Positions 3,225-37,400 of a stretch of 64,000 nt of DNA are shown one piece after another. Every line of letters starts with the position of its first letter. The stretch's first letter is position 1. The notes beneath the pieces are model-generated. The model had not been told where the DNA came from, ran no database searches, and was given only the letters and a program-made list of their open reading frames with translations. The DNA is from Gammaproteobacteria bacterium. GTDB taxonomy: Bacteria > Pseudomonadota > Gammaproteobacteria > CBDBNL01 > JAAOII01. Where the stretch lies: the NCBI GenBank assembly GCA_965207705.1, contig OZ242292.1, forward strand, positions 1,033,309 through 1,097,308, in the 5' to 3' direction. Made by a program: the position numbers and the translations under genes.

Positions 3225-3302
3225 AGAGAGTTCCTTTTTATATATTTCTATTCTACATCATTTTAAATGGGATAAGAATACTTGAATTAATTATGGATGC
3301 AC

Positions 3303-3388
3303 TACGCGAGCATATCGATAGTACATCACAAGAGTTAGGCATCTTGCGGGCGGAGCGCAGCTCCGCCCCTACAACAGACCTGCGTAGT
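3303..3388. repeat. Hairpin repeat element, copy 1
   Basis: Stem gggcggagc (3348..3356), loop gca, stem gctccgccc (3360..3368), with conserved flanks gttaggcatcYtgcg and cctaca..gacctgcgt. Near-identical copy at 16024..16106 and a diverged copy at 37330..37400. All three lie just 3' of minus-strand genes. Confidence 0.7.
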
Positions 3389-3406
3389 CAGTTCAATCGC
3401 TTTACT

Positions 3407-5974
3407 TTATGGACGCTGGGCGGCTAAGCCACCGGGAGTGCAGGTGAGCGCGGGGTATTCGGAAGCAGTACCAAAGTCCCAAGCACGGGTCATGCCATCA
3501 GGACACGTTTCTGTTGTCCAATCTGCATAAATCATATCAGGCACAGCATTTGTTGAGTTCTGCAAGCCCTCGGTGCTTCTGCTTGCTTCTGGGTATAAAT
3601 CATTACTTCCTATTGTTTTTGTTACGCCGCTGGTCTCGTTATTCCAATAGGAGTTGGTGATGTTGGCTACCAGGTTTTTGGTGGTGGCTACCCCAAAGCC
3701 AACCAGACCACCATTATTCGGAGAACCACTAATAGACATGCTTGTAGCATAAGACGAGGTGATGGTACTCCCACGCCCATCACCAACCAGACCTCCAACA
3801 ATATCGTTTTTATTCTCGACACTCCCTATTGACGCATAAGACGAGGTAATCTCGCTCCCCGGCCCATTACCAACTAGACCTCCAACCGTCCCAAACCCTT
3901 TAACAATCCCGCCTGACGCATAAGACGAGGTAATCTCGCTCCCCGGCCCATTACCAACTAGACCTCCGACTGTAGTGCCCCCAATGACTCCTCCTACTGA
4001 CACATAAGACGAGAGGATGGTGGCATCCATCCCTCTACCAATCAAACCGCCGATACTTGAACCACTAGATTCAACCATAATCGTCCCCTCCGCGGAGCTA
4101 TTTATAATGCTCGCTCCATTGGCATGACCAGCCAACAGCCCTACATTTCTATTATTAGTGCCAGTAATGCTGGCAGAACGGATATGAACATTGCGCAACT
4201 GCACCCCCTCAGCAATCGCCCCAAACAGACCGACCGCATTTGCATAATCACCAGTAGGATTTGTTATAGTAAGATTGCTAATTACATAACCATTGCCGTT
4301 AAAAGTGCTACTGAAGAATACGGTTGTAGAAGTGCAAATACTAGAACTAACGGTGGAGCATCTGCCAATTGGCTGCCAGTTATCGCCATTATAGCCAGCA
4401 AGGGAGATGTTAGCGACAAGCTCATAGCCGCTGCATACTGTGATATCCTCGCCAGCCATGGTGCCATTGCCGCAGCCCTCGTCATTGCCAGCAGCGTCCG
4501 CAGTTGCTTTGAAGGATGTGCCTTGAAGGTTATGGCGGGTTTGGTTAAGCTCGTCCGCAGTGGTAATTTCTATTAATCCATCGCCGTCTTCATCCACATC
4601 CAGGAAATTAACTAAACCGTCTCCATCTAAATCAGGTCCAATAGCTACGGTAACGGTTTGTGGTATAGTTGCTTTGCCAGCATCGGTGCCGTTTAATGTC
4701 AAACTAACAATAAAATTATAGTATCCTTCCACATCTAGTCCATCTATGAATTCCTGCACCTCAATGCCACGGATTGTTTTGGCTGGGTCTATTATGGGGG
4801 GCAAGTCCACCAAAGAATCAGAACCTCTTTGGTAGCCTATGCTAATGCTCCCTATGTGCTCACCAGGATTAGTCCATATAAGAAGGGCACTCCTGTCGCC
4901 AGGTATCGCCCGTAACCCTATCACTGAAACAGCAGCGGTCGCGGTGATAAAAGGCGCAACACCTTCCCTGCCTGCATAGATGCCACCTAAGGTTAAACTA
5001 ACAGTGAAGGTATAGGATTGTCCGTTGGTTAATCCAGGTATAGTTTCTTCCACTCTAATATTAGGGTTTAGTTTAGCGCCGCTTGTTATACGAGTATTTT
5101 CTTCTTCATTAGTAATAGGATCTAAATAGCTTATGTCAATTGCTATTATATTATTTCCCACAGCGGGATTCATCCAGCTAAGCGTTATGCTTTCATGACC
5201 AAGAACCGCTTCTAATCCTATTACTGGGAATACGTTAGGAGTTGCCGTGGCAGTTGACGCAACAGGGTTTTCCCTGCCAGTATCAGTGCCGTTTAATGTC
5301 AAACTAACAGTGAAGGTATAGGATTGTCCGTTGGTTAATCCAGGTATAACTTGTTCCACGTTATTGCCATTGGTTAGTTGAGAGCTGCTTGTTATAGGAA
5401 AATTTCTCGTTACACCAGCAACAGTATCTGGGTAGCTTATGTCAATCCTTGCTATTTGCGCGGCAGGATTAGTCCAGCTAAGAGTCACATTGCCAGCGCC
5501 TGCAACTACAGCTAATCCTTCTACTGCAAAGATGTTAGGAGTTGCGGTGATAGATTGTACCGCGCCTTCCCTGCCAGCATCTGTGCCATTTAATGCCAAA
5601 GTAACATTGAAGGTATAAGATTGTCCGTTGGTTAATCCTGTTATGACTTGCTGGACGTTAGTTCTGCTGGTGTTTAGTTGAATGTCGTTTGTTATTACGA
5701 TTGGAGGTCTTGGGTTGGCAGAATTAGGTATTGGATTACTAGAATTGGTGATTCCGTAGTTTATGCTAATGTTTGCTATTGACGCGGCAGGATTATTCCA
5801 GCTAAGAGTTACATTGCCAGCGCCGGGGGCTGCTTGTAAATTCATTACTGTGAATTTGATGGGGGGAGTGGGAGGCACAGTAACTGAGACGCCATTGTTG
5901 ACGCCGCCTCCTTCACAAGCAGCGAGGAAAACTGTAAACGTAGTCATTATAAGAATCGTGTTAATATGTTTCAT
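3407..5974 (-). CDS. Large surface lipoprotein with repeated Fn3-like ~90-aa modules, then a Gly-rich C-terminal region of GGLVG-type (GLUG-like) repeats
   Basis: ORF 3407..6004. The likely start is the internal ATG (MKHINTILIMTTFTVFLAAC, lipobox LAAC). It has four to five degenerate modules (NVTLSWxNPAA...GLTNGQSYTFTVSLTLNGTDxGRE) and about seven C-terminal units (VGGLVGNGPGSEITSSYAS). Confidence 0.7.
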   Translation of the reverse strand: MKHINTILIMTTFTVFLAACEGGGVNNGVSVTVPPTPPIKFTVMNLQAAPGAGNVTLSWNNPAASIANISINYGITNSSNPIPNSANPRPPIVITNDIQLNTSRTNVQQVITGLTNGQSYTFNVTLALNGTDAGREGAVQSITATPNIFAVEGLAVVAGAGNVTLSWTNPAAQIARIDISYPDTVAGVTRNFPITSSSQLTNGNNVEQVIPGLTNGQSYTFTVSLTLNGTDTGRENPVASTATATPNVFPVIGLEAVLGHESITLSWMNPAVGNNIIAIDISYLDPITNEEENTRITSGAKLNPNIRVEETIPGLTNGQSYTFTVSLTLGGIYAGREGVAPFITATAAVSVIGLRAIPGDRSALLIWTNPGEHIGSISIGYQRGSDSLVDLPPIIDPAKTIRGIEVQEFIDGLDVEGYYNFIVSLTLNGTDAGKATIPQTVTVAIGPDLDGDGLVNFLDVDEDGDGLIEITTADELNQTRHNLQGTSFKATADAAGNDEGCGNGTMAGEDITVCSGYELVANISLAGYNGDNWQPIGRCSTVSSSICTSTTVFFSSTFNGNGYVISNLTITNPTGDYANAVGLFGAIAEGVQLRNVHIRSASITGTNNRNVGLLAGHANGASIINSSAEGTIMVESSGSSIGGLIGRGMDATILSSYVSVGGVIGGTTVGGLVGNGPGSEITSSYASGGIVKGFGTVGGLVGNGPGSEITSSYASIGSVENKNDIVGGLVGDGRGSTITSSYATSMSISGSPNNGGLVGFGVATTKNLVANITNSYWNNETSGVTKTIGSNDLYPEASRSTEGLQNSTNAVPDMIYADWTTETCPDGMTRAWDFGTASEYPALTCTPGGLAAQRP

Positions 5975-6101: not shown

Positions 6102-8390
6102 ATGACTACATCACATGTTTTGGGGTTCCCGCGCTTGGGACCTGATAGAGAATATAAAAAAGCGCTTGAGAGCTATTGGAATGGCAAGATTGATGCCAAT
6201 AAATTGGAGGAATTAGGAGCTGAAATTCGCCGCCAGAATTGGCGCGCCCAGGAAAATGCCGGGTTAAGCTTTGTAACCGTTGGCGACTTTGCCTGGTATG
6301 ACCACATACTTAATGTATCGGCTATGATAAATGCCGTCCCAGCCCGTTTCACATATTCCAGCCCAGTAGATATAAACACAGTATTTCGCATGGCTCGTGG
6401 CCGCGCCCCTGTAGGCAAGGATGCTCATGCTTGCGAAATGACCAAATGGTTTGATACCAACTATCACTATATAGTTCCCGAGCTTCAGTCCGAGCAACAA
6501 TTTGCATTAACCTATTGCCCATTGTTTGAGCACATAAAAGAGGCGCAACAGCAAGGACATAGCGTGAAGGTTGTTCTGCCTGGTCCCGTTAGTTATTTGT
6601 GGCTTAGCAAGTGCGTTGGCGCTGAGTTTGACAAACTATCACTATTAGATGGTGTGGTTGCAGTTTATGAAGAAGTGCTCGCTAAAGTTAAGGATATGGA
6701 TGTGGAGTGGGTGCAGATTGATGAGCCCATTCTTACATTGGATTTACCCGATGATTGGCGCGCCGCTTACGCCACTGCTTATAAGCGGCTAAGCGCAAAG
6801 TCCCCCAAGATAATGCTTACCACTTATTTTGGTGGCATGGAAGAGAACTTTGCCGCAGTGAAGGATTTGCCCGTAGCTGGCTTGCATTTTGATGCAGTGC
6901 GTAGCGATGAATGGCAGCAGTTGGCGTCACAGTTACCACAAGACAAGGTGCTTTCATTAGGAGTAATTAATGGTAGAGATGTATGGCGCGCTAATTTGCA
7001 ACAAGTAGCAGACACGCTAAAACAAGCATCTTCATTACGCCCCTCTGGCAGCGAGCTATGGGTTGGTAGCTCTTGTTCCTTGATGCACTCTCCTGTTGAT
7101 TTAACCACTGAGACCAATCTGGACGATGAGTTAAAGCAATGGCTTGCTTTTGCCACGCAAAAATGCCAAGAAGTTGCTCTGTTGGCTAAAGTCCTGGATG
7201 ACGACCTAAATGCTGAAGACCAGCAAGCGCTTGCCGCCAGCACTGCCGCTGCTGAAGAACACAAGGTGTCGGAGCGTATTCATAAGCAAGAAGTTGCCTC
7301 AAGAGTTGCGGCGATAAACGCAGATATGGAAAAACGCGCTTCTCCTTTTACGCAACGAGCCGCTGCTCAAAAAGAGCATATTAATCTACCCGCGTTTCCC
7401 ACCACTACCATAGGTTCTTTCCCGCAAACTAGCGAAATTAGAGTGCTGCGTGGCAAGTTCAAACGTGGCGAAATTAACGAGGAGAGTTATGTAGCAGCAA
7501 TGAAAAAAGAAATTGCCCAAACGGTAGCCAAACAAGAAGAGATTGGTTTGGATGTGTTAGTTCACGGCGAGCCAGAACGCAATGATATGGTGGAGTATTT
7601 TGGCGAGCTGTTGGATGGAGTTGCAGTAACCTCAAATGGTTGGGTGCAGAGTTATGGCTCGCGCTGCGTTAAACCGCCCATTATTTATGGTGATGTTTCT
7701 CGTCCTGCCGCTATGACTGTGCCTTGGTCTGCTTATGCCAAAGAAGTTACAGATAAGCCGATGAAGGCAATGCTCACAGGTCCAGTTACCATCTTGTGCT
7801 GGTCTTTCGTGCGCGATGATATAAGCCGCGCTGCTGTGGCGAGGCAGATAGCCCTAACATTACGCGATGAAACAGTAGATTTAGAAAAAGCCGGCATGCA
7901 GATGATCCAAATTGATGAGCCAGCTTTACGTGAAGGTCTGCCTTTGAGGAGACGCAACTGGCAAGAATATCTTGGCTGGGCAGTGGAAGTGTTTCGCTTA
8001 TCATCCTGTGGAGTGAGAGATGAAACTCAGATTCACTCTCACATGTGCTACAGCGAATTCAATGACATCATAGAATCAATCGCGGCGTTGGATGCGGATG
8101 TCATTTCCATTGAATGCTCGCGCTCTAAGATGGAATTGCTGGATGTGTTTGATAAGTTTAACTATCCCAATGAGATAGGTCCTGGGGTATATGACATTCA
8201 TTCACCTTTAGTACCGCCAAGTGTAGAAATGGAAGAGTTGTTGGAAAAGGCAGCTAAACGGATACCTGCGGAAAGGTTATGGGTAAACCCCGATTGTGGT
8301 TTGAAAACCCGCGCCTGGCCCGAAACCACAGCAGCCCTTAAGAACATGGTGGCGGCTGCCATTACTATGCGTCAAAAACATAGTGCTTAG
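6102..8390 (+). CDS. metE: Cobalamin-independent methionine synthase (5-methyltetrahydropteroyltriglutamate--homocysteine methyltransferase)
   Basis: 762-aa ORF with the two-domain MetE layout and conserved blocks (MTTSHVLGFPRLGPDREYKKALESYW, C-terminal Zn-site region HSHMCYSEFNDI...IECSRS). Confidence 0.95.
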   Translation: MTTSHVLGFPRLGPDREYKKALESYWNGKIDANKLEELGAEIRRQNWRAQENAGLSFVTVGDFAWYDHILNVSAMINAVPARFTYSSPVDINTVFRMARGRAPVGKDAHACEMTKWFDTNYHYIVPELQSEQQFALTYCPLFEHIKEAQQQGHSVKVVLPGPVSYLWLSKCVGAEFDKLSLLDGVVAVYEEVLAKVKDMDVEWVQIDEPILTLDLPDDWRAAYATAYKRLSAKSPKIMLTTYFGGMEENFAAVKDLPVAGLHFDAVRSDEWQQLASQLPQDKVLSLGVINGRDVWRANLQQVADTLKQASSLRPSGSELWVGSSCSLMHSPVDLTTETNLDDELKQWLAFATQKCQEVALLAKVLDDDLNAEDQQALAASTAAAEEHKVSERIHKQEVASRVAAINADMEKRASPFTQRAAAQKEHINLPAFPTTTIGSFPQTSEIRVLRGKFKRGEINEESYVAAMKKEIAQTVAKQEEIGLDVLVHGEPERNDMVEYFGELLDGVAVTSNGWVQSYGSRCVKPPIIYGDVSRPAAMTVPWSAYAKEVTDKPMKAMLTGPVTILCWSFVRDDISRAAVARQIALTLRDETVDLEKAGMQMIQIDEPALREGLPLRRRNWQEYLGWAVEVFRLSSCGVRDETQIHSHMCYSEFNDIIESIAALDADVISIECSRSKMELLDVFDKFNYPNEIGPGVYDIHSPLVPPSVEMEELLEKAAKRIPAERLWVNPDCGLKTRAWPETTAALKNMVAAAITMRQKHSA

Positions 8391-13532: not shown

Positions 13533-14645
13533 TTAAGCGCCAGGGTAGGACCTCTCAGCAGGTCCGATGTATTCAGCGTTTGGCCTAATCAATCTATTAT
13601 CAGCCCGTTGTTCCATTATATGAGCCGCCCATCCCGAAGTGCGAGCACAAACAAATAGCGGAGTAAACAAAGCCCTTGGAATTCCCATATATCTATATGC
13701 GGAGGCACTGAAAAAATCTAAATTAGGAAAGAGCTTCTTTTCATCCCACATAACCTTTTCAATGGCTGCGGATATTTCAAACACTTTAGTGTCTCCATTG
13801 TCCTCACCCAAGCGGCGCGACCATTCTTTTATAACCTGATTGCGCGGGTCGGATATTTTATATACCGCATGACCAAATCCCATTATCTTATCTTTTCGTT
13901 CAAGCTTTTTATGAATTCCAGCAGTCGCCTCTTCCACTGTGGCAAATTCTTGAATTAGTTCATCAGCTTTTTCGTTAGCTCCACCATGTAAAGGTCCGCG
14001 CAATGCCCCTATGGCAGCTGTTATAGCGGAATAAATATCCGCCAAAGTGGCGGTTACCACGCGGGCGGTGAAAGTTGATGCATTGAACTCATGTTCTGCG
14101 TAAAGAATTAACGATACATCCATAGCCCGACGATGTAGCTCGCTTGGCTTTTTGCCGCTAATCAAATGAAGAATATGTCCAGCAATATTTTCATCATCTG
14201 TAACAGTGTCAATTTTTTCTCCTTGCGCAGTCCAGCGATACCAATAGCCCATAATTGAAGGAAACGCCGCCAACAGTCGCTCAGTTATTTCCATCTGTTG
14301 CTCAAAGGATTGCTCGGGTTCTATAACTCCAAGCATGGAACAGCCAGTTCTCATAACGTCCATCGGATGGGCATCTGCTGGAATGCGTTCCAATGTATCT
14401 TTAACCTGCTGCGGTAAGTCACGTTGCTGGCGCAATCTATCACAAAATGCTTCTAATTGTTGCTTGTTTGGCAGTTCGCCATGCAATAAAAGATAAGCGG
14501 TTTCTTCAAAAGTGGAATGCTCCGCCAATTCTAAAATATCATAACCATAGTAGGTTAGCCCTTTACCGCGCATGCCGCAGGTACATATTGCTGTTTGTCC
14601 AGCGCTTATGCCGCGCAAGCCAGCGGTGTTATCTTGTTTACTCAT
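13533..14645 (-). CDS. prpC: 2-methylcitrate synthase / citrate synthase family
   Basis: ORF 13533..14669. The likely start is the internal Met ([12 protein letters not shown]). Citrate-synthase blocks (GYGHAVY, catalytic His/Asp regions). The ~370-aa length and adjacency to prpB favour PrpC. Confidence 0.85.
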
Positions 14646-15561
14646 TATTATCTCCTTTAGTTTTATCATCCCCTATATTCTTATCTCCTCTATTCTTATC
14701 CCCCGGGGTATATAGTTTATCCAATTTATTTTCATAAGCATGATAGTCCAACACTTCATAAAGTTCGGTGCGGGTTTGCATGTTATCCAATAATTCTTTT
14801 TGGGTTTGTTGACTACGCAACTCTGTGTATATTCCTTCCGCCGCCTTGCTCATGGCGCGAAAAGCGCTAAGCGGATAAAGAGCCAAGGATACTCCAGCAC
14901 TCTTTAGCTCCTGAGTAGTAAATAAAGGCGTCTTGCCAAACTCAGTGATATTCGCCAAAATAGGCAAAGCGCTCCCATTAGCAAATGTTTGATATTCTTC
15001 AAGGGTGGCGACTGCCTCAGGGAAGAGCATGTCCGCGCCCGCCTCCTCATATAATTTACATCTTTCTAAAGCTCCCTCCAAACCCTCATTTGCCAAAGCA
15101 TCGGTGCGCGCCATTATAGTGAAGTTGTCATCAGTGCGCGCATCAACCGCAGCTTTAATTCTATCTACCATCTCTTCTTTTGATGCGATGCTTTTGCCTG
15201 GGCGATGTCCGCATCTTTTTTGCCCTGCTTGGTCTTCTATATGAATGCCAGAAGCGCCTGCGTTTACAAGCTCACGCACTGCGCGCGCTATGTTGAAAGC
15301 ACCTCCCCAACCAATATCGGCATCCACCAGTAAAGGTAAATCAACCCTACCAGTTATGCGGCGAGTATCCTCAGTCACATCAGCCAAAGTGGTAATGCCC
15401 AAATCAGGCAAACCGAAAGAAGCGTTGGCAACACCAGCACCCGACAGATATAAAGCTTTGAAGCCCGCGCGTTGCGCCAGCAAGGCGCTATAGGCATTGA
15501 TTGTTCCAACCACTTGTAAAGGAGTTTCCTCTTTGATGGCTTGTTTTAATGATAAAACCAT
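14638..15561 (-). CDS. prpB: 2-methylisocitrate lyase (PEP mutase/isocitrate lyase superfamily)
   Basis: 307-aa ORF. PrpB blocks (LYLSGAG, IEDQ..KRCGH, catalytic KRCGHRPGK). It overlaps the prpC start. Unusual Lys/Asp/Gly-rich C-terminal tail ([21 protein letters not shown]). Confidence 0.85.
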
Positions 15562-15655
15562 ACGCTAATTATAACATAGTGCAAATATTTGCAAGAAATT
15601 ATGCATCGCACATAAGTATAACGCGGCTCATTCCCATGGAAACATTGTTGTAAAT

Positions 15656-15994
15656 TTACAGTGTTTCCTGCCAATCTTGAATACGGGCGCGGATTTCTTC
15701 TATTTCTTTTTCCAATGCTGCTGCTTGTTGTAGTAGCAGCTCTCGCTTTTGCTGGAGTTCTTCAATTTCTTGACGCAACTGCGCCATTTCTACAGAATCT
15801 TTTCCATCAAAAGATGTCTCTTGTTTTTGGGTGGGTGGAATATTAATAGGGGGGATGTCTTTTTGTGAATAGATATAAAGTGCGCTCGCACCTATAACCA
15901 AAGCGATAAACAGGATAAAGATTATACGCCATTTTAGCCATCCTTTTTTGTTTAAGATTTTTGTTGGTTTTTGATTCATCTGTTTATTGGGCAT
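15656..15994 (-). CDS. Small bitopic coiled-coil membrane protein; possible truncated EnvC-like or FtsB-like protein
   Basis: 112 aa: basic N-terminus, one TM helix (IIFILFIALVIGASALYIY), C-terminal coiled coil (QLRQEIEELQQKRELLLQQAAALEKEIEEIRARIQDW). It sits where envC follows gpmI in enterobacteria. Its 5' end is duplicated by the insertion at 15987..16171. Confidence 0.45.
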   Translation of the reverse strand: MPNKQMNQKPTKILNKKGWLKWRIIFILFIALVIGASALYIYSQKDIPPINIPPTQKQETSFDGKDSVEMAQLRQEIEELQQKRELLLQQAAALEKEIEEIRARIQDWQETL

Positions 15995-16171
15995 CGCGAG
16001 AATTTATGCATCATATATAAGAACGACGCGAGCATGAAGATAGTTTGTCGCAAGTGTTAGGCATCCTGCGGGCGGAGCGCAGCTCCGCCCCTACAGACCT
16101 GCGTTGCAAGAATTTATGCATCATATATAAGAGCGATGCGAGCATGACGATGGTTTGTTGCGAGAATTTAT
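15987..16171. mobile_element. ~185-bp MITE-like insertion with internal ~60-bp direct repeats around a central hairpin, flanked by a 14-bp direct duplication
   Basis: gattcatctgttta occurs at 15973..15986 and 16172..16185. The second copy overlaps the gpmI stop and reconstitutes an ancestral ATGAATCAA start of the downstream gene. The interior holds two copies of a gaatttatgcatcatatataagaRcgaYgcgagcatgaMgat unit either side of the hairpin gggcggagc-gca-gctccgccc (16070..16090). Confidence 0.45.
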
Positions 16172-16182
16172 GATTCATCTGT

Positions 16183-17757
16183 TTAGCGGATTAGTGCTCT
16201 ACCACTCATTTCAGATGGCGGGAGTAATCCCATAAGTTTGAGCAAGGTAGGAGCAATATCTGCTAAGCCAGCTGGCTGGGTATCAAACTCAATCTGCATA
16301 TCTCCATAATACAATAATGGGACTGGATTTAAAGTGTGCGCAGTGTAAGGACTAACTCCGTCTGCAGCCAGCATCTCTTCGCAATTGCCATGGTCGGCAG
16401 TAATAAGGGCTTGGGCTCCATTTTTACGAATCACTGGCATGAGTTGACTTAAACTTTTGTCTATGTACTCAGCTGCTTTAATCGCGGCATCCAGTTTGCC
16501 GCTGTGTCCCACCATGTCGCCATTAGCATAATTACACAAAATAAAATCGTATTCCTGGCTTTCAAACGCCGCTACAAGTTCTGCAGTTATTTCAGGCGCT
16601 CTCATCTGTGGCGCCAAATCATAGGTTGCCACCTTCAAAGAAGGAATGAGCTTACGTTCCTCGTTAGCAAAAGGATCTTCTTTGCCGCCATTGAAAAAAT
16701 AAGTCACGTGGGCAAACTTTTCGGTTTCAGCAAGACGAAGCTGCTTTTTATTAAGGTCTGCCAAAACCTCACCTAAGCAATTGACAATTTTTTCACGCTC
16801 AAAGATAAAAGGCAGAGGGAGCGTTTCATCATAAGAGGTCATAGTCAGCAAAGATGATTTGGGCAGGACAAAAGGACGGTTAAATTCATCGAAGTTATCA
16901 GCGGCAAGAGCGGCGGTTATCTGCCTGACTCTGTCAGCGCGAAAATTTATGCAAATTATTGAATCATCAACAGAGATTACTCCATTATGAACATCCCCAC
17001 TTTCCTGTTTGCCTTGCTTGCCTTCATCGCCTTGGTCGGCTGAGCGCACAACAAGTGGCGGGATAAACTCATCGGTTATTTCTTTAGCGTAGTATTCTTC
17101 CAGTTTCTGATTCAGGTGTTTTGCATCATCTACAACTTCACCCTTACCGCTAACTAACAGGTCGTAAGCTTTTTGGGTTCGCTCCCATCTTTTATCGCGA
17201 TCCATTGCGTAATATCTACCAATTACACTGCTAATCCGCCCTACGCCCGTCTCTTTTAATTGTTGTTGAATAAAGTCAATGCAAGCAGGCGCCGAATTAG
17301 GCGCGCTGTCTCTTCCGTCAAGAAAAAGATGGAGTTCTATATTCTTAATTCCCTTAGCAGCTGCCAAACGTAAAACCGCAGCCAGATGTTCCTGATGGCT
17401 ATGTACCCCGCCATCGGATAGCAGACCCATGATGTGGAGCCGCGAGGAAGTGTTTTGCAAAAATGTGTTTAATGTTGGATGCTGTTGGATTGATTTATCA
17501 GCAATCGCCTTATTTATACGCAGTAGCGTTTGGTATACAATCCTTCCAGCACCTAAAATTAAATGTCCCACTTCGGAGTTGCCCATTTGCCCCTCAGGTA
17601 ATCCCACCTGCTCGCCGCAAGCAATAAGCTCGCGTTTGGGGCATTCCTGTAACAATTTATCCCAAGTTGGAGTTGCAGCAAGCTTAATAGCATTGCCAGG
17701 ATAATCCTTGCCCAGAGCCCAACCATCAAGGATTATTAGCGCAGTTGTTTTAGCCAT
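16183..17757 (-). CDS. gpmI: 2,3-bisphosphoglycerate-independent phosphoglycerate mutase
   Basis: 524-aa ORF with iPGM blocks (ILDGWALG, GNSEVGHL, TADHGNCE). Confidence 0.95.
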   Translation of the reverse strand: MAKTTALIILDGWALGKDYPGNAIKLAATPTWDKLLQECPKRELIACGEQVGLPEGQMGNSEVGHLILGAGRIVYQTLLRINKAIADKSIQQHPTLNTFLQNTSSRLHIMGLLSDGGVHSHQEHLAAVLRLAAAKGIKNIELHLFLDGRDSAPNSAPACIDFIQQQLKETGVGRISSVIGRYYAMDRDKRWERTQKAYDLLVSGKGEVVDDAKHLNQKLEEYYAKEITDEFIPPLVVRSADQGDEGKQGKQESGDVHNGVISVDDSIICINFRADRVRQITAALAADNFDEFNRPFVLPKSSLLTMTSYDETLPLPFIFEREKIVNCLGEVLADLNKKQLRLAETEKFAHVTYFFNGGKEDPFANEERKLIPSLKVATYDLAPQMRAPEITAELVAAFESQEYDFILCNYANGDMVGHSGKLDAAIKAAEYIDKSLSQLMPVIRKNGAQALITADHGNCEEMLAADGVSPYTAHTLNPVPLLYYGDMQIEFDTQPAGLADIAPTLLKLMGLLPPSEMSGRALIR

Positions 17758-18368
17758 TAGTCAATATAAAAGAAGAGCACCACCACTTCCTGCACTCCTT
17801 CTATGCGGCGAAACCTTCCAATCATTATTTCTGCCTCTTCCCTACTTACCAGCCCTATCAGGTAAACGCGACTTCTATCAACAAAATAATCTATACGAGT
17901 AGCGTCAAACTCTTTGACACCAGCCATAGCAAACCCAATTCGTGTGCGTAACAATAAATCATTAAATCCCTTATAGGGCGGTAAGGGATTAGCAACATCA
18001 ATGCGGTTGAACACTCTTTTTATTCCTTTCTTGCGAGCCGCGAGCACTTCTAATTTTTCTTTAGTGGCGGCATTTTCTGTTTCCCCCACCAGTAAAACAT
18101 TGTTATTGTATACTTGTACCTTTGCTCTTAATCGGGTTTTGTCTCCCAGAGTAATTATGTCTCTTCTTATAGATGCCTCATTTTTTTTATCAAGCGACGC
18201 CACAGAAGGAGAGCGGAATGGTTGTTGTTCACTATAAACATTTTCCCTAGTGGATACAGAAGAACAACCACTAACCACAAACAAGGATAACAAAAGAATA
18301 ATAAAAGGTTTTAGCGAGGACTTCAAGGTTAAGCGAATATTCTTTTTTCTACTAAATAGCAAAGGCAA
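17757..18368 (-). CDS. dolP: BON-domain outer-membrane lipoprotein, DolP/YraP family
   Basis: 203 aa, lipobox VVSGCS, two BON-like segments. Conserved position after yraN-diaA as in E. coli lpoA-yraN-diaA-dolP. Confidence 0.7.
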   Translation of the reverse strand: MPLLFSRKKNIRLTLKSSLKPFIILLLSLFVVSGCSSVSTRENVYSEQQPFRSPSVASLDKKNEASIRRDIITLGDKTRLRAKVQVYNNNVLLVGETENAATKEKLEVLAARKKGIKRVFNRIDVANPLPPYKGFNDLLLRTRIGFAMAGVKEFDATRIDYFVDRSRVYLIGLVSREEAEIMIGRFRRIEGVQEVVVLFFYID

Positions 18369-37221: not shown

Positions 37222-37329
37222 AATTTATCTTTAATAGTTAATTCAAAAAATGTATAGAGGATATTATAAACAAACTTTACTGTTTTTAATACAAATTGCG
37301 AGCATACCGATGCATTATTCCAAGTATCA

Positions 37330-37400
37330 AACATTTAGCGGGCGGAGCAAGGGGGGTAAATAAAAGGGGGGATGAATATAAGCCCTCCGCCCCTACAGAA
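37330..37400. repeat. Diverged copy of the hairpin repeat element
   Basis: gcgggcggagc ... ~40-nt A/G-rich loop ... ccctccgcccctacagaaacg. It has the same gggcggag/ctccgccc arms and the cctacaga tail as the copies at 3303..3388 and 16024..16106. It sits between bioY and the ybbP-like gene. Confidence 0.55.

Follow-up and report, generated by a model that had tools for sequence, protein, structure and literature searches.

We examined the junction downstream of gpmI, the gene for 2,3-bisphosphoglycerate-independent phosphoglycerate mutase, in a 64,000-nt stretch of contig OZ242292.1 from a gammaproteobacterial assembly (GCA_965207705.1; this whole stretch is hereafter the window). At this junction a 184-bp insert separates gpmI from a small downstream gene, and it is probably one copy of a lineage-specific mosaic repeat of the repetitive extragenic palindrome (REP) type, which inserted with duplication of 15 bp of the junction and was remodelled later. 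We regard the insert as real, old and fairly ordinary, a lineage-specific addition to the kind of element formed by REPs and their partner REP-associated tyrosine transposases (RAYTs). The original prediction, made from the window alone, had described a small, multi-copy, non-coding element at the gpmI stop/start junction with a target duplication, and this much is borne out by an empty site and dispersed copies; its further description as MITE-like (a miniature inverted-repeat transposable element) is not, as set out below.

A duplicated gene junction flanks the insert

The genes concerned all lie on the minus strand, in the order gpmI (16183-17757, a 524-aa open reading frame (ORF) with its TAA stop at 16185-16183), the small ORF (15656-15994), prpB and prpC; homologues of gpmI carry both PF06415 and PF01676. 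The 14-mer GATTCATCTGTTTA has exactly two occurrences in the window, at 15973-15986 and 16172-16185, precisely where the original prediction had placed them, and two matches were obtained in 0 of 100 shuffles. The exact repeat extends to 15 bp (TGATTCATCTGTTTA, 15972-15986 and 16171-16185), or to 19 bp if one mismatch is accepted (repeat family D4). Its gene-sense sequence, TAAACAGATGAATCA, comprises the stop codon of gpmI, four spacer nucleotides, ATG and then AATCA. The upstream copy (16171-16185, minus strand) covers the gpmI stop, as had been claimed, together with the spacer and a duplicated ATG at 16178-16176, while the downstream copy (15972-15986, minus strand) supplies a duplicated TAA and the conserved ATG of the small gene at 15979-15977. 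Minor corrections apply to the earlier description: the gpmI stop and the ATG are 4 nt apart (TAA-ACAG-ATG) and not 5 nt, the right copy continues as ...ATGAATCAT and not as ...CAA, and the insertion put at about 185 bp is genuine at a length of 184 bp (15987-16170).

The window was compared with nine loci holding homologues of the small protein, one closer gpmI relative and one outgroup. A related strain (L005) has an empty junction, ...CCGC-TAA-ACAG-ATGAATCAAAAACC (in full, ...CCGCTAAACAGATGAATCAAAAACC), so that the empty site anticipated among related strains is present. The outgroup, a sponge metagenome locus (L063) whose gpmI is 68% identical, also lacks the insert, and its orthologous small gene lies 23 nt past gpmI without a repeat. 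A search of JGI metagenome contigs with the empty-site pattern ATCCGMTAAAYADATGAATCAA returned four matches, all of them unrelated chance matches. The other 10 of the 11 ingroup alleles (the window, L001-L004, L006-L008, L041 and L062) are filled, with the insert at the identical point and between the same duplicated junction, at lengths of 76, 76, 76, 102, 121, 151, 151, 184, 184 and 255 bp. Flanking DNA is 92-97% identical among the filled lineages. The two repeat copies have diverged within genomes (in L004, for example, TAAATAT.. upstream versus TAAACAG.. downstream), and the junction duplication is therefore older than the split of these lineages.

The insert is built from units of a dispersed REP-type family

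REPs are imperfect palindromes of 20-40 nt that fold into a GC-rich stem-loop. They are recognised by a GTAG (or GTGG) head followed by a palindrome, and the partner RAYT is a Y1 transposase gene flanked by inverted REPs (PMC2817692, PMC3733652). Read in gene sense on the minus strand, the insert opens with a partial L-arm (TAAATTCTCGCAAC, 16170-16157) joined directly to a distal R-arm (AAACCATCGTCATGCTCGCATC, 16156-16135); the REP and proximal R-arm are absent between the two, and the join falls at a TYGCRAC box. There follow an L-arm (16134-16103), GCAGGTCT, the REP core GTAGGGGCGGAGC-TGC-GCTCCGCCCG (16069-16094) with its GTAG head, 9-bp GC-rich stem and 3-nt loop, the proximal R-arm (16068-16047), a second distal R-arm (16046-16025), an extra L-arm (16024-15993) and a terminal GCCCAA (15992-15987). 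The insert thus consists of one full unit, one unit without a REP and one extra L-arm. A profile of the family matches it at 16011-16131 (nhmmer E 2e-32) and again at 16122-16168. Two units of about 60 bp around a 9-bp-stem hairpin had been noticed earlier, and we recovered them as 59-bp direct repeats of L-arm plus distal R-arm (15996-16054 and 16106-16164, plus strand; repeat family D1) that are 88% identical and flank the hairpin with its 9-bp stem and 3-nt loop. The stem, GGGCGGAGC-TGC-GCTCCGCCC, folds as DNA at -14.4 kcal/mol (z = -2.9) and is present in the RNA fold too.

We scanned for the hairpin pattern in one genome per species. OZ242303.1, a 1.86-Mb uncultured gammaproteobacterium about 93% identical in shared regions, contains 37 exact GTAG-REP cores, and a profile built from its copies found three minus-strand units in the window and about 70 matches in 27 loci of OZ242303.1 itself. 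With three window units and 37 cores in a relative, the case that would have undone the prediction, a local tandem duplication lacking other copies, did not hold. The predicted recurrence of the hairpin at 3348..3368 was likewise found: the second window copy (3292-3415, minus strand) sits between two co-directional minus-strand genes, has its REP core at 3347-3372 and shares about 85 bp of flank at 85% identity (3301-3385). The third copy (37285-37399, minus strand) has about 31 nt in the REP loop, versus the usual 3 nt.

A complete unit measures about 110 nt and runs L-arm, GGTCT spacer, REP, R-arm. The L-arm is ..TATGATGCATAAATTCTTGCRAC (also written ..TATGRTGCATAAATTCTTGCRAC), the REP is GTAGGGGCGGAGC-NNN-GCTCCGCCCG, the R-arm is CAARATGCCTAACACTTGCGAC-AAACYATCNNNATGCTCGCRAC, and each unit contains three TYGCRAY boxes. 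Units occur singly, as partial copies or in head-to-tail arrays with a period of 110-111 nt (L040, L047 and L035). When up to two substitutions were accepted, the search of the window and the related loci yielded 53 short-loop cores, 52 of which, including both short-loop copies of the window, carry GTAG before the stem; the core of the gpmI insert is identical to the commonest of them. Most units stand between genes, frequently just a few nt from a gene end, and only 3 of 43 family blocks lie inside long ORFs. Between co-directional genes, 14 units are in sense and 4 in antisense orientation, and units are probably transcribed within operon mRNAs. Matches to the REP pattern in Gemmatimonadota, Hymenobacter, Thermoanaerobaculia and others were judged to be unrelated GTAG-type hairpins.

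The filled alleles differ from one another in these same modules. The shortest (L006, L008 and L041) are reduced to a partial L-arm, REP, proximal R-arm and ACCCAA, whereas L001, L004 and L007 carry one or two 30-nt L-arm variants and L062 has two REPs in direct orientation. The breakpoints between architectures coincide with TYGCRAY boxes, which fits remodelling by unequal recombination or slippage between these short direct repeats.

A candidate partner enzyme is encoded in related genomes. A tblastn search with an approximate E. coli RAYT query gave a weak match in L010, a locus of OZ242303.1, and this led to a RAYT-like Y1 transposase gene (L010:1919-2518, minus strand). The ORF scores 31.2 bits against Pfam Y1_Tnp (cut-off 23), and its best NCBIfam model is REP_Tyr_transpos, the REP-associated tyrosine transposase (E 3e-17), at 62.9 bits versus an equivalog cut-off of 80 bits. 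Searching PDB with the single sequence gave no meaningful match; a profile of the ORF and its homologues had 4ER8 'TnpArep' as its sole PDB match (E 2e-5). The HxH and YY residues are invariant in this cluster (P0130), the gene is near-identical and present as one copy in each of four related genomes, and in L010 it is flanked by family units in opposite orientation (1807-1918 on the plus strand, 2504-2636 on the minus strand). In a genome of 1,793,685 bp the gene is split into pieces of 91 and 58 aa and is probably a pseudogene.

The family resembles REP/RAYT systems in its GTAG head and short GC-rich palindrome (PMC2817692, PMC3733652, PMC3116915), in its tens of copies per genome, nearly all intergenic and often abutting gene 3' ends, in being embedded in a larger mosaic and in tandem arrays, and, as far as related genomes go, in a candidate Y1 (HUH) transposase gene that is present once per genome and bordered by REPs in inverted orientation. 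It departs from them in the conserved arms of about 30 nt and about 45 nt that belong to each unit.

An ORF runs through the insert in most filled alleles

In the window, an ORF of 55 codons (the relay ORF; 16011-16178, minus strand) starts at the duplicated ATG, runs through the element and ends at a TGA. Among the ten filled alleles, seven (L001, L003, L004, L006, L007, L008 and L041) keep this ORF open through the whole insert, over 28-53 codons, with its stop 0-4 nt before the ATG of the small gene. The stop is the duplicated TAA in six of these; in L003 it is a TAA made by the repeat variant TAAATAAATG, directly abutting the ATG. The open alleles fall into four architectures, in which the repeats are spaced by 91, 117, 136 and 166 nt. 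The relay ORF ends short in the window and L002 (by 31 nt in each), where the extra L-arm brings in the TGA, and in L062 (by 102 nt). Elsewhere in the family 6 of 36 blocks are open in the relay frame and 9 of 38 in any frame; set against the former, the openness of 4 of the 6 architectures at gpmI gives a Fisher p of 0.02, for alleles that are not independent. Judged from the nucleotide sequence, the ancestral termination-reinitiation geometry is recreated in the open-relay alleles.

These observations bear on an alternative in which the insert is a selected regulatory module that sets the ratio of gpmI to downstream expression, through mRNA 3' protection, attenuation or a translated relay ORF that preserves coupling. 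Retention in nearly every ingroup allele despite heavy remodelling would agree with such a role, as would the sense bias of units across the family and the excess of open relay frames at this locus. There is also a precedent in mycobacterial interspersed repetitive units (MIRUs), repeats with an internal ORF coupled to a neighbouring gene (PMC12548453). Against a regulatory module, the relay is broken in three filled alleles and, to judge by the empty allele, the junction can do its work with no insert present. Moreover, the hairpin is followed by CAGGATGCC, with no T-run or terminator-like site in 15987-16170 on either strand; a promoter and terminator scan of 15500-16400 placed no promoter-like site inside the element, and no Rfam family was matched in the whole window at gathering thresholds or in 15900-16260 at E<=1. 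On this balance a selected regulatory module seems rather unlikely, and we instead see in the element a selfish insertion that is tolerated since duplication of the junction cancelled its cost. As a secondary effect it may shield the upstream message, by analogy with REPs elsewhere, and in most alleles it may also hand on translational coupling.

A related proposal combines the mode of insertion with the frame: REP units would enter by a route that duplicates 15-23 bp, and at a coupled junction the entire termination-reinitiation module would be doubled and the unit would become a translated relay mini-ORF that holds the downstream gene in coupling with gpmI, its frame kept by selection through repeated remodelling. 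We hold this as a tentative and somewhat doubtful idea. Were it true, the relay would be a gammaproteobacterial, REP-based counterpart of the MIRUs, and if the mini-ORF is translated, REP elements would join the MIRUs as repeats that bring along an ORF for coupling. MIRUs are inserted at start codons, contain an internal ORF coupled to the flanking genes and have little effect on downstream translation (PMC12548453; PMC3184786). Both kinds of element are short repeats of variable unit number between co-directional operon genes, and both can present an internal ORF coupled to the flanking genes, in our case as a prediction for the seven open alleles. They differ in sequence, phylum and hairpin core; coupling here would use the duplicated TAA-N4-ATG module and in MIRUs uses a -4 overlap, and the open ORF is a property of this locus rather than of the family design, being rare in other blocks and broken in the window allele. 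A looser parallel exists with Rickettsia palindromic elements (RPEs) and REPs within ORFs, in which a palindromic repeat is readable in one frame without stops (PMC3733652). The repeat described here shares the one open frame with RPEs, yet it is not fused into a functional protein and would at most form an independent mini-ORF between genes.

The original start codon of the small gene survives

The small downstream gene (15656-15979, minus strand) encodes 107 aa starting MNQKPTK, with a predicted membrane anchor and coiled coil, and its product belongs to no Pfam or NCBIfam family above cut-off. Nine database homologues are 81-100% identical, all nine share the MNQ... start, and the database gene call of the 100%-identical protein is likewise 107 aa from the MNQ ATG. 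A mechanically derived ORF reaches further, to an ATG at 15994, giving 112 aa with an MPNKQ... extension. This ATG is built from the last bases of the element (..GCG-ATG-CCC-AA), occurs only in the window allele and L002, and has no counterpart at that position in the other filled alleles. The idea that the insertion rebuilt the start codon is thus not supported: duplication of the junction preserved the original start (ATG 15979-15977), which lies in the left repeat copy. The new ATG is indeed element-supplied, as had been suggested, but it is not the conserved start, and the element at most offers an alternative start in two alleles. For annotation, the lesson is that the longest ORF probably begins at the wrong codon (ATG 15994), the conserved start being the ATG at 15979.

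Long target duplications and the origin of the insert

We searched for flanking direct repeats around all 52 family blocks, scoring them against a mismatched-pair null with a 95th percentile of 10.4. A second long duplication was found at L057:7485-7602 (OZ242303.1): on either side of a single unit stands a 23-bp repeat, GCRYRACCATTTTRCTGCCTTGA, whose copies differ by 3 mismatches. The duplicated sequence takes in the TTGA at which a quinone-oxidoreductase-like gene and a gene for an aldehyde dehydrogenase overlap, stop on start. Candidates in L056 and L039 were set aside as short or as internal family sequence. The unit at L057 (region 7470-7625) is antisense to its flanking genes.

Both visible long duplications, at gpmI and at L057, lie at tightly coupled gene junctions, where duplication is the sole way to keep both genes intact and both copies are under selection. 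The target sequences also resemble the ends of the unit: at gpmI, ATGAATCA resembles the L-arm sequence ATGATGCA and, at the other end of the insert, TAAAC resembles the unit's CAAAC, while at L057 the target ATGGT resembles ATGGTG in the L-arm. Because the length of the duplication varies and microhomology is present, we favour a template-switch or repair-type insertion as more likely than a fixed staggered cut, on the strength of these two cases.

Several points weigh against a REP-type insertion with target duplication, or against parts of the history built on it. Transposition of the IS200/IS605 type, with a Y1 enzyme, is described as occurring without larger target duplications (PMC2817692), so the 15-bp repeat is unlike the mechanism usually assumed for REPs, and the 23-bp duplication at L057 is equally unexpected for such single-strand transposition. 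That locus is also the only 1 of about 40 other family blocks with a comparable flanking repeat. The units here stand in direct head-to-tail order, versus the inverted doublets (REPINs) or alternating arrays (bacterial interspersed mosaic elements, BIMEs) of REP/RAYT systems. No RAYT was found in the 64-kb window by tblastn with the approximate E. coli query, and 0 of 12 members of the RAYT cluster are on the 2,057,196-bp contig that carries a protein identical to that of the window; in the window genome the gene may be absent, diverged or uncalled. The sole empty allele comes from a contig (ctg3055, sample ERZ25069764) at 2x coverage. Its nearest relative is the filled allele L001, at 96%, and L005 is nested among filled lineages; its empty state could be a secondary precise deletion between the repeats and not the ancestral state, or it may reflect ancestral polymorphism. 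Finally, the relay ORF of the window itself falls short of the MNQ ATG by 31 nt and of the ATG at 15994 by 16 nt.

Alternative origins account for less. If it were a classical MITE, the insert would derive by deletion from an insertion sequence of the DDE class, have terminal inverted repeats, be moved by an enzyme acting in trans and generate a duplication of fixed length. A small, non-coding, multi-copy element with a direct repeat at its flanks and an existing empty site would suit this description, and MITEs such as Correia, ERIC and RUP elements share with our family the small size, the non-autonomous, multi-copy and intergenic character, the flanking direct repeat, the empty/filled polymorphism and, probably in the case of our family, co-transcription with neighbouring genes. 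The ends of the insert tell otherwise. Terminal inverted repeats, which the MITE label calls for, are lacking: the first 40 nt and the last 40 nt reach at best 39% complementarity when compared ungapped, and no terminal pair stands among the inverted repeats detected; the two ends (TAAATTCTCGC... and ...GCCCAA) are instead direct repeats of each other, at 70%, and we accordingly class the insert as a REP-type mosaic and not as a strict MITE. Target duplications of MITEs are typically 2-10 bp and fixed in length, whereas ours is long and variable, 15 bp here versus 23 bp at L057. The core is a GTAG-headed palindrome typical of REPs, the linked enzyme in relatives is a RAYT-type Y1 transposase rather than a DDE enzyme, and no insertion sequence, related or otherwise, was seen in the window or beside units in the fetched loci. 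We consider a MITE very unlikely.

A purely local origin, in which tandem duplication or slippage expanded the intergenic region and no mobile element took part, is more improbable still. The insert does contain internal repeats, the 59-bp units, and varies in length from 76 to 255 bp in the manner of a minisatellite, but two other window sites and dozens of unrelated loci of OZ242303.1 hold the same units, and the 23-nt outgroup junction has no trace of one; local expansion accounts for the later variation only, not for the origin. Site-specific integration, with the direct repeats as attL/attR cores common to element and target, is the least credible reading: it would explain a single site in all filled alleles and a repeat long for a transposon duplication, but other family copies are not flanked by the 15-mer TAAACAGATGAATCA, L057 duplicates a wholly different 23-bp sequence from its own gene junction, and one common site is explained by a single ancestral event.

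Returning to a REP-type insertion, we propose the following history. An ancestor of the clade would have gained a unit at the very point where gpmI stops and the next gene starts (TAA-ACAG-ATG), in an event that duplicated the 15-bp junction TAAACAGATGAATCA; because of this duplication the gpmI stop, the downstream ATG and its 4-nt spacing to a stop were all retained. Half-units would later have been gained and lost at TYGCRAY boxes, producing insert lengths from 76 to 255 bp. The RAYT found in relatives presumably helps, or once helped, the family to spread, and the long duplication may stem from a repair- or replication-type event, with microhomology-guided template switching as one candidate. 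We infer that the element is transcribed in sense orientation within the operon mRNA and is tolerated since the duplicated stop-ATG module would pass ribosomes from gpmI to the element ORF and on to the downstream gene. The REP hairpin may in addition stabilise the upstream gpmI message, as REPs do elsewhere.

How REPs and mosaic arrays spread is still argued, and filled/empty pairs with clear junctions are uncommon, which makes the gpmI locus a useful data point, since here the insertion of a REP unit can be seen together with its empty site and a target duplication of unusual length. The locus shows how a repeat can enter a coupled operon junction and leave the genes unharmed, through duplication of the stop-spacer-start module. 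Its long duplication and its relay ORF merit further study.

Neighbouring genes and further repeat variants

Upstream, the operon is tightly packed. An ORF for a BON-domain lipoprotein (17757-18368) and gpmI overlap by one base at 17757, which points to a stop/start overlap of the two, and translational coupling seems to be the rule in the gpmI gene string (16183-18368). Downstream, the gene that follows the small gene differs by strain, as seen when 15562-15655 of the window was compared with L001, L005 and L006 and with L002, L004 and L062. The small gene is followed directly by prpB in the window, L003, L007 and L008, by a glycosyltransferase-2 gene in L001, L005 and L006, and by an unrelated gene for a pentapeptide-repeat protein in L002 and L062. 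In L004 it is followed by another unrelated gene, on the opposite strand and without a Pfam family, and a family unit lies at the breakpoint (3344-3458). The 3' end of prpB is a low-complexity tail that overlaps the start of prpC by 32 nt (14638-14720); prpB ranges from 288 to 311 aa among relatives, so the tail appears variable.

An isolated L-arm remnant (15588-15625, minus strand; repeat families D2 and D3) lies between the small gene and prpB. Within the region 15568-15625 its TTGCAA box (15589-15594) is 15 nt from a perfect TATAAT (15573-15568) that ends 6 nt before the prpB ATG (15561), a pair that the promoter scan did not report because of the 15-nt spacer. Going by these motifs, the remnant could provide a repeat-derived promoter that gives a nearly leaderless prpB mRNA.

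Finally, the family includes a sub-family in which the REP loop is 16-31 nt long and contains TTATATTCATCCCCCC instead of the 3-nt loop. Its members are the third window copy (core about 37343-37399, minus strand), L004:3379, L010:2540-2590, L022:5856 and copies in L036, L047 and L056; the variant in L010 adjoins the RAYT-like gene. The TTATATTCATCCCCCC motif is apparently doubled in the window copy and in one L056 copy and has the opposite orientation in L022, and its appearance is that of a very small secondary insertion aimed at the REP loop.

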